Sequence record: OR896832.1
Origin: Escherichia phage GoldenSnicker
Length of the DNA: 64,000 nucleotides
Direction: 5' to 3' (one strand)
The position numbers and the translations under genes were made by a program. The notes below the pieces were generated by a model. It searched no databases, was not told the DNA's origin, and was given only the letters and a program-made list of their open reading frames with translations. Shown piece by piece: positions 4,961 through 62,077 of this stretch. Each line of letters starts with the position of its first letter. The stretch's first letter is position 1.

Positions 4961-5205
4961 TGGCGCATAGACGCGCCTGAATCGCATTTTGACGCTGTAT
5001 GATGAAAACAGGTAGCGTACCAGTCATTGGCTTGTTTGTCTTCGTCAGAAAACGCGTAATTGCGTTGTATGCCGTTTTCTACTTTGACCAGTGCAATAGC
5101 TGTTTCTGGAAGATCAATCAATCGGACAAAATCACCATCTTCCCACTCTACACGAGCAATATCATAGCCCATCTCAAAGTATACAATCGCTTGTTCTAAT
5201 TTCAT
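4957..5205 (-). CDS. hypothetical protein (82 aa)
   Basis: Track ORF; last gene of minus-strand operon, followed by terminator 4929..4960. Confidence 0.5.
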   Translation of the reverse strand: MKLEQAIVYFEMGYDIARVEWEDGDFVRLIDLPETAIALVKVENGIQRNYAFSDEDKQANDWYATCFHHTASKCDSGASMRQ

Positions 5206-5531
5206 TCTGGAAACTTCCCGTAAACATTCTCTGCCAGCTTACGTGCATCTTTTACAATATCTTTCATGTAATGACTATAATTTTTAGCTAGATCAATGAT
5301 GCAGTCAACAAAGAAGTAATAGCGTCGCAGTGCTACCAGCTCAACATCTTCAAGATGACCATTTTCTCCAATCGCTGAAATATGTTTAAATTCCTTTTGG
5401 ATCGCGTCCATCGCTACATTAACTTCTTTTATAATATCTTTCGTATTATATGCACCTCGACTAATCAAAATTTTGGTTAGGTCTTCTGCTTTTTCGTGAA
5501 AGTTGTCAATTTCAAACTCGATCATAATCAC
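5202..5531 (-). CDS. hypothetical protein (109 aa), paralog of 5640..5972
   Basis: Track ORF; shares helical pattern and C-terminal ..AENVYGKF motif with neighbour. Confidence 0.55.
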   Translation of the reverse strand: MIMIEFEIDNFHEKAEDLTKILISRGAYNTKDIIKEVNVAMDAIQKEFKHISAIGENGHLEDVELVALRRYYFFVDCIIDLAKNYSHYMKDIVKDARKLAENVYGKFPE

Positions 5532-5984: not shown

Positions 5985-6317
5985 TTACAGATGAAAACCT
6001 GTTACGATCACCGCATCGATCATACCGCTAGGAATAAACGGTTCACCCTCTTTTATTTCAACTTTGAATTGATGCCATTTCGCTAATACTTCTTCCGGTA
6101 CACCCAGCGATTCGGCGTCTGCTTTAGTTTCATCCATAATCCAACTAGGCTGCATGAGAGCATAGTTTACATAGTCCATTTCTGGGGTCATGTCATCAAT
6201 GTTAATATATTTGCAGTTGACGCGTTTCAGAATTTCAAATTCTTTATTGTCAACCTGTACCATGTATAATTCAGTAGTTTCTGGAATCAGTTCCCACACA
6301 ATCAGTACATTTTTCAT
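5985..6317 (-). CDS. hypothetical protein (110 aa)
   Basis: Track ORF; AAGGAG RBS; tightly packed in operon. Confidence 0.55.
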   Translation of the reverse strand: MKNVLIVWELIPETTELYMVQVDNKEFEILKRVNCKYINIDDMTPEMDYVNYALMQPSWIMDETKADAESLGVPEEVLAKWHQFKVEIKEGEPFIPSGMIDAVIVTGFHL

Positions 6318-6325
6318 AGTTCACC

Positions 6326-6694
6326 TCACTTAACAAAGATTTTCTTTAATGCTTTCAGGATCGTTGCTTCCGGCGCTTCTTCCGGTGGAGGAAGCAATTC
6401 TACCACTTCCTCTTCCAACTCGATATAGTCTACCAGATATTCTACATAGAATGCAAGTGCTTCCATGAAATTAAATGCTACATCCGATTCACCACAAGCG
6501 CCTACATGCATTGTATAAACATCACTGCGATCAAGTTTGTGGATGCTTCCCAGATAGTTCCGGTTATACCAGACTTCCCACACTTTCAGCTTTCCGGTTT
6601 TGGTTGCTGTTTTATAATCGGTTTCGTAATGATGCAATTGACGTTGCAGATCATTGATAATAACACATTTTTCGTAATTATTTTGAATTTCCAT
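6326..6694 (-). CDS. hypothetical protein (122 aa)
   Basis: Track ORF in co-directional array. Confidence 0.5.
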   Translation of the reverse strand: MEIQNNYEKCVIINDLQRQLHHYETDYKTATKTGKLKVWEVWYNRNYLGSIHKLDRSDVYTMHVGACGESDVAFNFMEALAFYVEYLVDYIELEEEVVELLPPPEEAPEATILKALKKIFVK

Positions 6695-58085: not shown

Positions 58086-58865
58086 TTACACGCGAGCACC
58101 GTAGATCGTGCCTACTTTATCCCAGCGAGGGGCATTGCCAGTAACAGCCTTACCAGCCGCTCCGCCATTATATTCCGATCCCTGTCCACGGATATTACAT
58201 TTACCACCAGCGCCACCAGCATCACCACCGTTACCGCCATTATATACACCGTTGACAGACCCTTTACCTGGAGCGGAAATAGTACCAGCAGTAGCACCCT
58301 GTTCCATATTAGCAGACCCACCAGCAGCGCCAAATGGACGACCGCCGCCACCTCCAAAAGTCAATTTCATTTGTGGAAAAGGAGACCAGTATCCTCCGCC
58401 ACCACCGCCACCGCCACCGCAAATAGCGCCGTTATTTGTGATGCGTAAGCGTGTGCCTATACCGTTGTTAATTGCATTACCACCAGCACCACCAGCGGAG
58501 TTATTGCCACCATTACCACCACGCCCCCAAACATGAACACCTGCATTAATGATCAATGTTACATATTCGTTTGTTAACGAGCTAGGGAAGTCAAGACAAG
58601 GAACGCCAGTAGATTGGGAAACAATATTACCCGTGATAGTAATTACTACAGGAGTAGATCCTTGTGCTTTCATCCAGTTAATAAGAGTGTCTTTATTGTA
58701 AGAGTTACTAGCACCAATGCTATAATGAATCTCTTTAGAGCGTCCGACCATCGCGGACATATACGCCGGACGACCTAAGCGAACAGCTTGCATTGCGGCG
58801 CTCATCCACCGTTGACCAGTCTCGGACACAGCAGATGATCCTACCCATCCAGAAGATATTGCCAT
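58086..58865 (-). CDS. 38: gp38-like glycine-rich receptor-binding adhesin (T2/T6 type)
   Basis: 259 aa; N-terminus MAISSGWVGSSAVSETGQRWMS.. and glycine-rich motifs (GRGGNGG, GGGGGGGGG, GGGGGRPFG, GGNGGDAGGAGG) ending ..TIYGARV, matching recalled T2 gp38 architecture; RBS GAGGAAATTTT. Confidence 0.7.
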   Translation of the reverse strand: MAISSGWVGSSAVSETGQRWMSAAMQAVRLGRPAYMSAMVGRSKEIHYSIGASNSYNKDTLINWMKAQGSTPVVITITGNIVSQSTGVPCLDFPSSLTNEYVTLIINAGVHVWGRGGNGGNNSAGGAGGNAINNGIGTRLRITNNGAICGGGGGGGGGYWSPFPQMKLTFGGGGGRPFGAAGGSANMEQGATAGTISAPGKGSVNGVYNGGNGGDAGGAGGKCNIRGQGSEYNGGAAGKAVTGNAPRWDKVGTIYGARV

Positions 58866-60396: not shown

Positions 60397-60425
60397 TTTG
60401 ATTCTCCTTTGTTGTCGATGTGTGC

Positions 60426-60454
60426 ATTATGCTATACCCTATTCCGGTTGTCAA
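60426..60454 (-). promoter_or_regulatory. sigma70-type promoter (TTGACA-17-CATAAT)
   Basis: Minus-strand TTGACAACCGGAATAGGGTATAGCATAAT just after terminator 60461..60496. Confidence 0.55.
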
Positions 60455-60460
60455 CACCTA

Positions 60461-60496
60461 AAAACGAAAAAGCCACCCTTTCGGATGGCTTTTTGA
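60461..60496. terminator. rho-independent terminator (symmetric A-run/T-run)
   Basis: AAAAACGAAAAAGCCACCCTTTCGGATGGCTTTTTG; ~230 nt downstream of stop of 60725..61123. Confidence 0.7.
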
Positions 60497-60724
60497 TTAT
60501 ATTTTATTCACGTCCATTTGTATAGTAGTGTTTGAATCGACCTTTGCTAAACTAGTTAAACATAGTAACCAATTCACCATCCCTTTCCAATGATAACACT
60601 TCCTCGTCTTAGACGGGTCTTCCGATTCGGCAGTAATTGAACACGCGAAAGTATGAGGAAGCCAAATAGTTGTGTTAATGCTAGTATTCTTTTACTTCTG
60701 GTATGCATCCCACGGTGACTAACA

Positions 60725-61123
60725 TTAAGACAGTCGAGTGAGTTTATAAATTGTTTTAAAACATAGAGCTTTGATATCGTCTAAAACGCTCTGTAACGAG
60801 CTATCAACATCATTATAAATCTCACTAGCCATTTGCGTTAACTCTTGCAAATAGGCAATTTCGCTAATCTCCTTGCGGACGACCAACGTTGGCTGATAAC
60901 GACCAGTGATCCCAATATTGGTTTCAGTGAAATCATCAACCAATTCTTGCATTTCAAGATAGAACTCTTCTAGAGCCTTATGTTTTGCATAAGATCCAGG
61001 ACCAGTTACCCCAAAATGCGCAGAATGCATATAAGTAACACTCATCAGACATTCACCGATAAAGCGGTCAACTTTATTAGCTTTCCCCTCTTCGGACGTC
61101 TTTCGAAAATCACTGAATTTCAT
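60725..61123 (-). CDS. Dps/ferritin-like four-helix-bundle protein (132 aa)
   Basis: Start at MKFSDFRK after GGAGAATCGAGAAC; ..YMHSAHFGVTGPGSYAKHKALEEFY..ELVDDFTE.. resembles Dps signature H..W..G..F..H..EE. Confidence 0.45.
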   Translation of the reverse strand: MKFSDFRKTSEEGKANKVDRFIGECLMSVTYMHSAHFGVTGPGSYAKHKALEEFYLEMQELVDDFTETNIGITGRYQPTLVVRKEISEIAYLQELTQMASEIYNDVDSSLQSVLDDIKALCFKTIYKLTRLS

Positions 61124-61412
61124 GTTCTCGATTCTCCATATTATGCAACATAACAAACTGTTGTGCGGCATATTCCCCCATAATAAAACACTGCTTAGAA
61201 TCCATACATTTACTACGAGCATACATCTTCATAATATGGGCATGAAATTTCTGGCTGGTTTCAATGGAAGGAGATATTTTGTTTACATATACTATCATTG
61301 CACCGTCGAAATAATCAGTAAAATCACCAGTTGGATCATATTGATCAGCACTGACACTTCCGACCGCAGTCAAGCATATTGCCGCTGTTAGAGTTTTACG
61401 AATAAATGACAT
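61110..61412 (-). CDS. secreted/periplasmic protein (100 aa)
   Basis: Signal peptide MSFIRKTLTAAICLTAVGSVSA; TATAAATA late-promoter-like motif ~33 nt upstream. Confidence 0.5.
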   Translation of the reverse strand: MSFIRKTLTAAICLTAVGSVSADQYDPTGDFTDYFDGAMIVYVNKISPSIETSQKFHAHIMKMYARSKCMDSKQCFIMGEYAAQQFVMLHNMENREHEIQ

Positions 61413-61445
61413 AAGTCATTCCCCCAGATTAAAAATATTCAGTTA

Positions 61446-61453
61446 TATTTATA
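61446..61453 (-). promoter_or_regulatory. T4 late-promoter-like TATAAATA box
   Basis: Minus-strand TATAAATA (plus tatttata) 33 nt upstream of ATG at 61412. Confidence 0.4.
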
Positions 61454-61480
61454 ATCTGGGGCTTTATTTATGATTAACTC

Positions 61481-62077
61481 TTATTTGGTAGTACCGTCAA
61501 TAAAATGTTTACGGCACACAGAGACATATTTATCCTCTGCACCAACTTCTATTTGAGCACCATCGCGAATAACATTACCCTCTTTATCTACACGAAGGAC
61601 CATTGTTGCTTTCTTGCCACAATGACAAATACCCTTCATTTCGACCAGTTTATCAGCAAATGCCATTAATGCCGCAGATCCTTCAAATAGATTGCCCTGA
61701 AAGTCGGTGCGAAGGCCATAGCACAGTACAGGGATATTTGCATCATCGACAAGCGCACACAAGCCTAAAACATGCTCTTTAGTCATAAATTGGGCTTCAT
61801 CTACAAATACAGCATCAGGACGCCATCGATCCGGTCTACGCTTACCTAACGATTCACGATAAACCAAATCGAAAAGATCATCCGATTTAGTGAAGGTGAT
61901 CGCTGGAGCACTTAGACCAATTCGGGAAACAACTTCACTTTCTGAATCTCGATTATCAATCGCTGGCTTAAGAATTAATACTCGCATATCACGTTCGGTA
62001 TAGTTATAAGCACTTTGTAACAGAGAAGTTGATTTGCCAGCGTTCATAGATGCATAGTAGAAATATAGTTGCGCCAT
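61481..62077 (-). CDS. tk: thymidine kinase
   Basis: 198 aa; Walker A MNAGKST, C-terminal CHCGKKA zinc ribbon; size as T4 Tk. Confidence 0.88.
   Translation of the reverse strand: MAQLYFYYASMNAGKSTSLLQSAYNYTERDMRVLILKPAIDNRDSESEVVSRIGLSAPAITFTKSDDLFDLVYRESLGKRRPDRWRPDAVFVDEAQFMTKEHVLGLCALVDDANIPVLCYGLRTDFQGNLFEGSAALMAFADKLVEMKGICHCGKKATMVLRVDKEGNVIRDGAQIEVGAEDKYVSVCRKHFIDGTTK

Follow-up and report, generated by a model that had tools for sequence, protein, structure and literature searches.

The ferroxidase centre of Dps proteins consists of His31 of one subunit and Asp58 and Glu62 of its neighbour, and is probably the sole site kept in all Dps proteins (PMC8389677). Canonical, Dps-like proteins are also borne by phages, including Lactobacillus plantarum myoviruses, 'Gratiaviridae', and other gut phages, and have been proposed to make infected cells more tolerant of iron and peroxide stress; they have been counted as rare (7 + 36 genomes), in counts that did not include proteins of the DUF5856 family (PMC6669764, PMC8008677). 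Infection in a different phage-host pair puts the host's own dps among the genes with the highest induction (PMC7354516).

RI.-1 of phage T4 is known from the genetics of lysis inhibition. Expressed from a plasmid, T4 rI.-1 made lysis inhibition slightly longer in wild-type T4 infection, strongly boosted the effect of RIII (synergy), relieved RIII toxicity, and was ineffective in an rIII mutant (Golec et al., 2010; PMC2962797). In a later review, the role of RI.-1 was given as 'as yet undefined' and its genetic effects as slight (Abedon, 2019; PMC6832632). Dps is mentioned in neither of these two papers (PMC2962797, PMC6832632). A homolog from Vi01-like phages was termed 'ferritin' in print in 2024 (PMC10892097). 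In this study, we describe a Krischvirus member of the same family and compare it with Dps.

The window, that is, the whole 64-kb stretch of DNA analysed, was assigned by nucleotide identity to a Krischvirus genome (RB49/ECD7-like; T4-like Straboviridae): over the 2.1 kb flanking the gene, identity to more than 50 Escherichia and Shigella phages of this genus is 98.4-99.7%. Krischvirus relatives of the window include RB49, JSE, ECD7, and W115. The Dps-like open reading frame was confirmed at 60725-61123 on the minus strand, with 132 codons and a stop. The features of the gene and its surroundings are as follows.

60457..60494, minus strand: terminator-like hairpin with a 12-bp stem and a GAAA loop, followed by a T-run
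60725..61123, minus strand: coding sequence of the Dps-like protein, the T4 rI.-1 ortholog (Pfam DUF5856, PHROG 858, homologs)
61110..61412, minus strand: rI antiholin gene, 100 aa (PF24205 Antiholin, 1.6e-23; PHROG 1246, lysis inhibition)
61124..61137, minus strand: Shine-Dalgarno GGAG (61137-61134) and 10-nt spacer, inside the 3' end of rI
61422..61461, minus strand: RNA hairpin, inside the 71-nt stretch 61405-61475
61446..61453, minus strand: T4 late-promoter motif TATAAATA (motif search)
61481-62077: thymidine kinase gene tk

Translation of 61123-60725, from the ATG at 61123-61121 to the TAA stop at 60727-60725, gives MKFSDFRKTSEEGKANKVDRFIGECLMSVTYMHSAHFGVTGPGSYAKHKALEEFYLEMQELVDDFTETNIGITGRYQPTLVVRKEISEIAYLQELTQMASEIYNDVDSSLQSVLDDIKALCFKTIYKLTRLS. 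The leader before the ATG reads ...ATATGGAGAATCGAGAAC-ATG, and the peptide SVTYMHSAHFGVTGPGSYAKHKALEEFYLEMQELVDDFTE corresponds to residues 28-67 of the product. The leader, start codon, 132-aa product, and peptide quoted in the original prediction are all present, on the minus strand. An in-frame ATG further upstream at 61222 would give 165 aa in the open reading frame listing; this reading was ruled out by homolog starts and annotations at MKFSDF. The 132-aa reading is correct because the homologs start at MKF(S/N)DF, an N-terminus common to the T4-type, Jiaodavirus, and Krischvirus proteins, and because the RefSeq annotation of ECD7 has the same 399-nt coding sequence. Two plus-strand ORFs inside the gene (60845-60973 and 60980-61153) were set aside, since the strongly supported minus-strand gene already explains that stretch. 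The product is a soluble, acidic protein of 15 kDa with a pI of 5.2.

The protein matched Pfam DUF5856 (PF19174) with 75.7 bits against a cut-off of 34.6, and PHROG 858 with an E-value of 1.7e-43 over residues 1-131 of 132. An NCBIfam search of the protein gave no match, PADLOC returned only noise, and Rfam matches around the gene were all sub-threshold. Identity was 97-100% to other Krischvirus proteins (100% to the protein encoded by phage FL38), 45% to a Jiaodavirus protein, and 33% over residues 1-129 (E 1e-25) to AIT73387 of the T4-type phage RB6, annotated 'mobD.6; rI.-1'. T4 RI.-1 (rI.-1, also listed as mobD.6; 129 aa) belongs to the same family and occupies the same tk - rI - rI.-1 locus. 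By these comparisons the 132-aa protein is assigned as the Krischvirus ortholog of T4 RI.-1, and every feature of DUF5856, PHROG 858, and T4 RI.-1 that was checked was found in it. It carries a 3-residue GPG insertion (residues 41-43, in the A-B loop) that most relatives are without.

Homologs were detected using tblastn in 1,415 of 50,697 phage records. The records come from phages of Escherichia, Klebsiella, Salmonella, Shigella, Enterobacter, Aeromonas, Yersinia, and other hosts, and span Straboviridae, Ackermannviridae, and other groups. When 1.84 billion cluster representatives were searched by profile, 1,909 clusters (50% identity) were recovered at E <= 1e-3. The Pfam and PHROG matches and these homolog counts lie well outside what chance would give. 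Given the 1,415 records and 1,909 clusters, a phage-encoded protein of the DUF5856 kind is common. The original prediction had regarded a phage-encoded Dps-like protein as unusual; the number of phage records with a homolog refutes this claim, and the Dps-derived PHROG label and the Vi01-like 'ferritin' of 2024 also contradict it (PMC10892097). About one quarter of the DUF5856 representatives are longer than 200 aa, and many of them combine an N-terminal DUF5856 with unrelated C-terminal extensions; a Pfam scan of 35 long members found no partner domains.

A phmmer search against all PDB chains retrieved only Dps-family proteins at E < 1. The best matches were 1jig (Dlp-2; 2.9e-5) and 2d5k (S. 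aureus-type Dps; 3.8e-5), followed by Dlp-1 (4.4e-5), B. brevis Dps (6.3e-5), and HP-NAP (7e-4); 1ji5 and 1n1q were also among the matches. Profile comparison was performed using hhalign with a 61-sequence family alignment and a 31-sequence Dps alignment. The two profiles aligned with an E-value of 1.3e-5 and a probability of 80.5% over 55 columns in helices A-B only (family residues 18-75 against residues 13-70 of Listeria innocua Dps, LiDps). The probability was just 2.9% when the family profile was compared with one Listeria Dps sequence. Three ordinary bacterial Dps proteins carry precomputed matches to both PF19174 and PF00210. The AF2 monomer model had a pLDDT of 93.5 and a pTM of 0.87, and the protein is predicted from it to be a ferritin-like four-helix bundle. 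The likeness to Dps is supported by four independent lines of evidence, including sequence, profile, and reciprocity; the matches to Dps in sequence, profile, and fold were significant.

LiDps, for which a reference sequence identical to 1qgh_A was used, was aligned with the window protein. H33, H36, H48, E52, Y55, D63, and E67 of the window protein aligned with H28, H31, H43, D47, Y50, D58, and E62 of LiDps, respectively, and alignment with HP-NAP gave the same register. H36 and H48 lie on one face, and D63 and E67 lie on helix B. The codons are positioned as follows.

60923..61027, minus strand: Dps-type ferroxidase-centre motif, codons H33 to E67 (Dps alignments, family conservation)
61016-61018, minus strand: H36 codon
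60980-60982, minus strand: H48 codon
60935-60937, minus strand: D63 codon
60923-60925, minus strand: E67 codon

The Y55 codon is also inside 60923..61027. Conservation was scored in 149 family representatives, each from a different 50%-identity cluster. H36 and E67 are each conserved in 148 of the 149, H48 and D63 each in 147, and the four together in 147; the four-ligand set is incomplete only in a 48-residue fragment and in one divergent sequence. Y126 is conserved in all 149, Y55 in 144, and D115 in 137. The residues under the strongest selection in the DUF5856 family are the Dps metal ligands, and this is the main argument that metal would be bound in the Dps manner. The site could hold Zn, Co, or Mn instead of iron, or be purely structural. 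A Dps/ferritin-like protein with a resemblance to the ferroxidase site had been proposed in the original prediction, with structure modelling as a check. The phmmer and profile matches and the ferritin-like bundle of the AF2 model bear out the first part, and the alignment of H36, H48, D63, and E67 to the LiDps ligands, together with their retention across the family, bears out the second.

The Dps comparators were Listeria innocua Dps (1qgh), Bacillus anthracis Dlp-2 (1jig), H. pylori NAP (1ji4), and M. smegmatis Dps2 (4m32). The Dps spacing His-x11-His-x14-Asp-x3-Glu is identical in the window protein, which also shares the Tyr seven residues past the second His and the acidic character of Dps. 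The window protein is about 25-35 residues shorter than Dps; the median length is 122 aa in the DUF5856 family and 156 aa in the Dps set, and the family median pI is 5.6. In Dps, the BC helix lies in the long B-C loop and contributes to the two-fold interface at which the metal site is formed. This helix is absent from the AF2 model, in which residues 74-87 are coil, the B-C loop is approximately 12 residues shorter than in Dps, and helix C has just 16 residues. The Trp after the first ligand His of Dps (LiDps Trp32) is replaced by F37; at this position, L is found in 116, F in 23, and W in 8 of the 149 representatives. The C-terminal half of the window protein is not alignable by profile with that of Dps, and PF00210 (Ferritin-like domain) gave no match to the protein in Pfam even at E 10. 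The window protein is Dps-homologous but should not be filed as a canonical Dps, because the PF00210 match, the BC helix, the Trp, and alignability over the full length are all missing.

Other differences concern DNA binding, the class of metal site, and ancestry. The Lys-rich DNA-binding tail of the E. coli type, which is not universal in Dps, is absent from the window protein. Residues 1-17 include 5 basic and 3 acidic residues (net charge about +2), and this N-terminal segment is absent from the 117-aa Ackermannviridae homologs. No feature supporting the originally suggested DNA binding was found. A classical intra-subunit di-iron site of ferritin or bacterioferritin (paired E...ExxH) was ruled out because H33, H36, and H48 are the only histidines and none has a Glu at -3. 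Unlike Dps, the window protein is viral and late-expressed and has homologs in virion preparations. Canonical phage Dps proteins are recent captures of bacterial PF00210-type Dps; in contrast, DUF5856 is an old, divergent, virus-wide lineage.

The gene order tk - rI - rI.-1 is found in the window and in ECD7, RB6, and ValerieMcCarty03, and the rI/rI.-1 arrangement is shared by T4-type RB6 and Jiaodavirus. The rI.1 gene, located between tk and rI in T4, is absent in Krischvirus, where the gap is 68 nt. The first 14 nt of the Dps-like gene are shared with rI; hence, the two genes form one transcription unit. The 64-kb window has a single copy of TATAAATA, against 5.7 expected by chance; it precedes the rI ATG by 34 nt. 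In T4, too, the interval between tk and rI carries a late promoter (PMC2962797). The 71-nt stretch 61405-61475 folds at -25.2 kcal/mol (z -6.1). The hairpin within it contains the late promoter, and its 3' arm pairs with the G-rich ribosome-binding site of rI; we infer that it can be formed by read-through transcripts from upstream only, not by late-promoter transcripts. Several T4 late genes have a comparable arrangement of hairpin and late promoter. The terminator-like hairpin at 60457-60494, approximately 230 nt past the stop codon of the Dps-like gene, is probably the end of the rI/rI.-1 transcription unit. With the late promoter upstream and this hairpin downstream, the Dps-like gene is the last of a small rI unit with a late promoter. 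A near-consensus sigma-70-type promoter (TTGACA-17-CATAAT) follows the terminator-like hairpin. The original prediction had not included the 14-nt overlap with rI, the late promoter, or the virion-proteome detections described below.

The explanation that we favor, with a probability of roughly 0.55, is a late-expressed viral mini-Dps, that is, a virus-specific, shortened Dps that binds and oxidises iron. We infer the following scheme, with or without a cage. Two subunits would pair on a two-fold axis, and H36/H48 of one and D63'/E67' of the other would bind Fe(II). H2O2 or O2 would oxidise the bound Fe(II), Fe(III) would be retained, and Fenton reagents would be removed at late stages of infection and during lysis inhibition, which lasts for hours. 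The role would be the protection of phage DNA and the infected cell during prolonged lysis inhibition, a stage at which the host would no longer be able to induce dps and the cell would be full of phage DNA. The small RI.-1-dependent prolongation of lysis inhibition in T4 would be explained by such an iron-protection role. Part of the mini-Dps may end up in, or adhere to, virions. Several observations weigh against a viral mini-Dps. The profile alignment to Dps is limited to the N-terminal half and PF00210 is unmatched; relative to Dps, about 35 residues and the BC helix are missing and the Trp is replaced; lysis inhibition was studied solely through plasmid overexpression, which had small effects; and carry-over of an abundant late protein into the preparations could account for the virion detections.

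It is possible, although we consider it unlikely, that the protein is mainly a virion component, head-internal or DNA-associated, and that its metal site serves the particle rather than the cytoplasm of the infected cell, for example by shielding packaged or freshly ejected DNA from iron damage or by stabilising assembly. The chemistry would be the same as that of a mini-Dps; the place and time of action differ. This reading draws on three independent data sets, covering two phage families, in which homologs were detected in CsCl-purified virions. LIMEstone1 ORF78, labelled 'unknown structural protein', was detected at 13.15 kDa with 28% coverage and 3 peptides (PMC3296691), and the calculated mass of the LIMEstone1 homolog is exactly 13.15 kDa. 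Sajous1 gp217 was detected with 10 spectra and matched 'ferritin' in Phyre2 with 96.7% confidence (PMC10892097). ValerieMcCarty03/04 gp108/gp100 were detected with 26/27 PSM, within the range of neck and baseplate proteins (PMC13119998); this homolog is 45% identical to the window protein and likewise overlaps rI. The LIMEstone virion list also includes rIIB and DNA ligase (PMC3296691), and such obvious non-structural proteins in mass-spectrometry lists speak against a structural assignment.

Genome context bears on the virion reading in both directions. Sajous1 gp217 and LIMEstone1 ORF78 have the same ligand set as the window protein (44% identity), but they are 117 aa long, are without the N-terminal 15-residue segment, and have no adjacent antiholin gene; they lie in a virion-detected gene cluster upstream of primase, the Ackermannviridae homolog being within a run of four virion-detected genes. 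In P22-like metagenomic contigs (L007-L009, L014), the gene comes right after the portal gene with a 4-nt overlap, before scaffold and coat, and in another lineage (L010) it follows the major capsid gene. BFVD includes Dps-like domains in fusion with prohead proteases, as well as crAss-like 'DpsA/DNA-binding' proteins. The late promoter upstream of the gene in the window is in line with the virion reading. However, contexts vary, since the gene lies within the nin region of a lambdoid contig and beside DnaJ, near the RNR small subunit, in an algal-virus-like contig, and the linkage in T-even phages is to rI, not to head genes. An assembled 12-mer would be too large for passage through the tail tube. 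To our knowledge, RI.-1 has not been reported among T4 virion proteins, which also argues against this reading.

A wider proposal, which is speculative and which we hold to be improbable as a whole, is that DUF5856 proteins are virion-carried mini-ferritins in or on T4-like, Vi01-like, and P22-like heads and shield the packaged or newly injected genome from iron radicals. In T-even phages they would, in addition, link the duration of lysis inhibition to the cell's redox and iron state, and in a sub-lineage the domain would be an N-terminal carrier for variable C-terminal domains.

It is quite doubtful that the protein is an accessory of lysis inhibition that works through protein-protein contact with RIII in the cytoplasm and thereby affects the RI-holin complex indirectly, with the fold as a scaffold and iron irrelevant. 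The tight rI/rI.-1 operon is kept in Krischvirus, Tequatrovirus, and Jiaodavirus, and the effect of RI.-1 requires RIII, is synergistic with it, and relieves its toxicity (Golec et al., PMC2962797), all of which would suit such a contact. However, the family is widespread without an annotated rI nearby (Ackermannviridae, P22-like, and lambdoid contigs), its most conserved residues are metal ligands that a mere scaffold would not need, and the genetic effects are slight and come from overexpression (PMC6832632).

A 'Ferrojan horse', in which virion-held iron baits siderophore receptors at adsorption, was proposed for Vi01-like phages from the Phyre2 'ferritin' match and virion presence of Sajous1 gp217, but it is very improbable here. 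It is already largely refuted for one host: plating was unchanged on tonB, feoB, and tonB feoB Salmonella (PMC10892097). In addition, the window phage has a conventional gp38 adhesin, and exposure of the protein on the tail is unsupported. A regulator that binds DNA sequence-specifically and controls phage or host genes, as implied by the label 'starvation-inducible transcriptional regulator' of PHROG 858 and RefSeq copies and by a weak match (8.5e-07) to PHROG 3636 'DNA binding protein', is hardly credible, because the window protein has no DNA-binding domain in Pfam (DUF5856 only) or NCBIfam (nothing), is a predicted ferritin-like bundle, and is acidic (pI 5.2), the N-terminal segment of about +2 being missing in the 117-aa homologs.

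The gene is a real, conserved, and catalogued phage accessory gene and, as a finding of a genome scan, an ordinary one; the feature is already known, because the entity and its ferritin/Dps likeness are present in databases and in one paper. A literature search found no papers naming 'DUF5856' and no published assay of Fe(II) oxidation or iron-core formation in a member of the family. Three points were absent from the literature searched: an explicit link of T4 rI.-1 to a Dps ferroxidase site that is fully conserved; how broad the DUF5856 family is, a 2021 survey having counted Dps in only approximately 43 phage genomes; and the recurring association of DUF5856 with virions and head gene modules. 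Dps-like proteins are far commoner in phages than surveys of canonical Dps implied. The conserved ferroxidase ligands provide a concrete and cheap hypothesis on iron binding and oxidation and on lysis inhibition. The label 'starvation-inducible transcriptional regulator' is spreading through phage annotations without support; the ECD7 copy is labelled 'starvation-inducible transcriptional regulator; rI.-1 conserved hypothetical protein'.

The interval between the thymidine kinase gene (tk) and the antiholin gene rI contains a strong hairpin. The 71-nt stretch 61405-61475 (-) folds with a free energy of -25.2 kcal/mol (z-score of -6.1); the hairpin encloses the late-promoter motif TATAAATA (61446-61453, minus strand), and the ribosome-binding site of rI is base-paired within it. 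In T4, a comparable device leaves late transcripts translationally active and early read-through transcripts silent. By analogy, the tk-rI hairpin looks like the T4 device for silencing early read-through transcripts. TATAAATA occurs once in the 64-kb window versus 5.7 copies expected from shuffled sequences; therefore, the window is essentially an early/middle region, with one late promoter serving rI and the Dps-like gene rI.-1. Distinct from T4 and RB6, in which rI.1 lies ahead of rI, the phage has no rI.1 in the tk-rI interval, where the gap (61413-61480) is just 68 nt.

Downstream of the Dps-like gene, 328 nt (60397-60724) carry no annotated gene. The elements of this stretch are, in order:

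about 230 nt, 3' untranslated RNA
60494-60467, terminator hairpin with a 12-bp stem and a GAAA loop
60454-60426, near-consensus promoter, TTGACA-17-CATAAT

No family match was found for a 44-aa ORF at 60574-60708. All Rfam matches to the 328-nt stretch were far below threshold, and the fold z-score of the whole stretch was only -1.9.

The Dps-like protein belongs to the DUF5856 family (PHROG 858). PHROG 858 is the source of the label "starvation-inducible transcriptional regulator", which is now spreading among RefSeq phage records. The label appears to be a garbled transfer of the Dps name, and no support for a regulator role of the DUF5856/PHROG 858 protein was found in the present analysis.

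DUF5856 genes were also located at other loci (coordinates within each locus):

5001-5363 / 6001-6366, DUF5856 gene in four P22-like metagenomic phage contigs (L007-L009 and L014)
5001-5372, DUF5856 gene of another lineage (L010), after the major capsid gene in order

In the P22-like contigs, the last 4 nt of the portal gene are shared with the DUF5856 gene, and the scaffold and coat genes come after the DUF5856 gene. A 45-kb contig (L013) carries a DUF5856 gene together with a chlorophyll a/b-binding-like gene, DnaJ, the RNR small subunit, and DUF5754/DUF5872; this gene content suggests that large viruses of algae also carry the family.

In one sub-lineage (P0143, P0147, P0150, P0155, P0187, P0220, P0267, and about 14 further proteins), the DUF5856 domain sits at the N terminus and is extended on its C-terminal side by unrelated segments of 100-190 aa, for which no Pfam match was found. 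A constant head joined to a variable tail recalls carrier-plus-cargo or polymorphic proteins. Among BFVD matches, prohead proteases of uncultured Caudovirales are fused to ferritin/Dps-like domains (A0A6J7XDU5 and A0A6J7WIS1), and "DpsA/DNA-binding" proteins of crAss-like phages share the ferritin/Dps-like fold.

Approximately 1.9 kb downstream of the Dps-like gene, surrounded by small early-type ORFs, lies one further gene:

58086-58865 (-), gp38 long-tail-fibre adhesin gene (PF05268, 6e-73; glycine-rich motifs)

The long proline-rich mirror ORF on the opposite strand is probably spurious.
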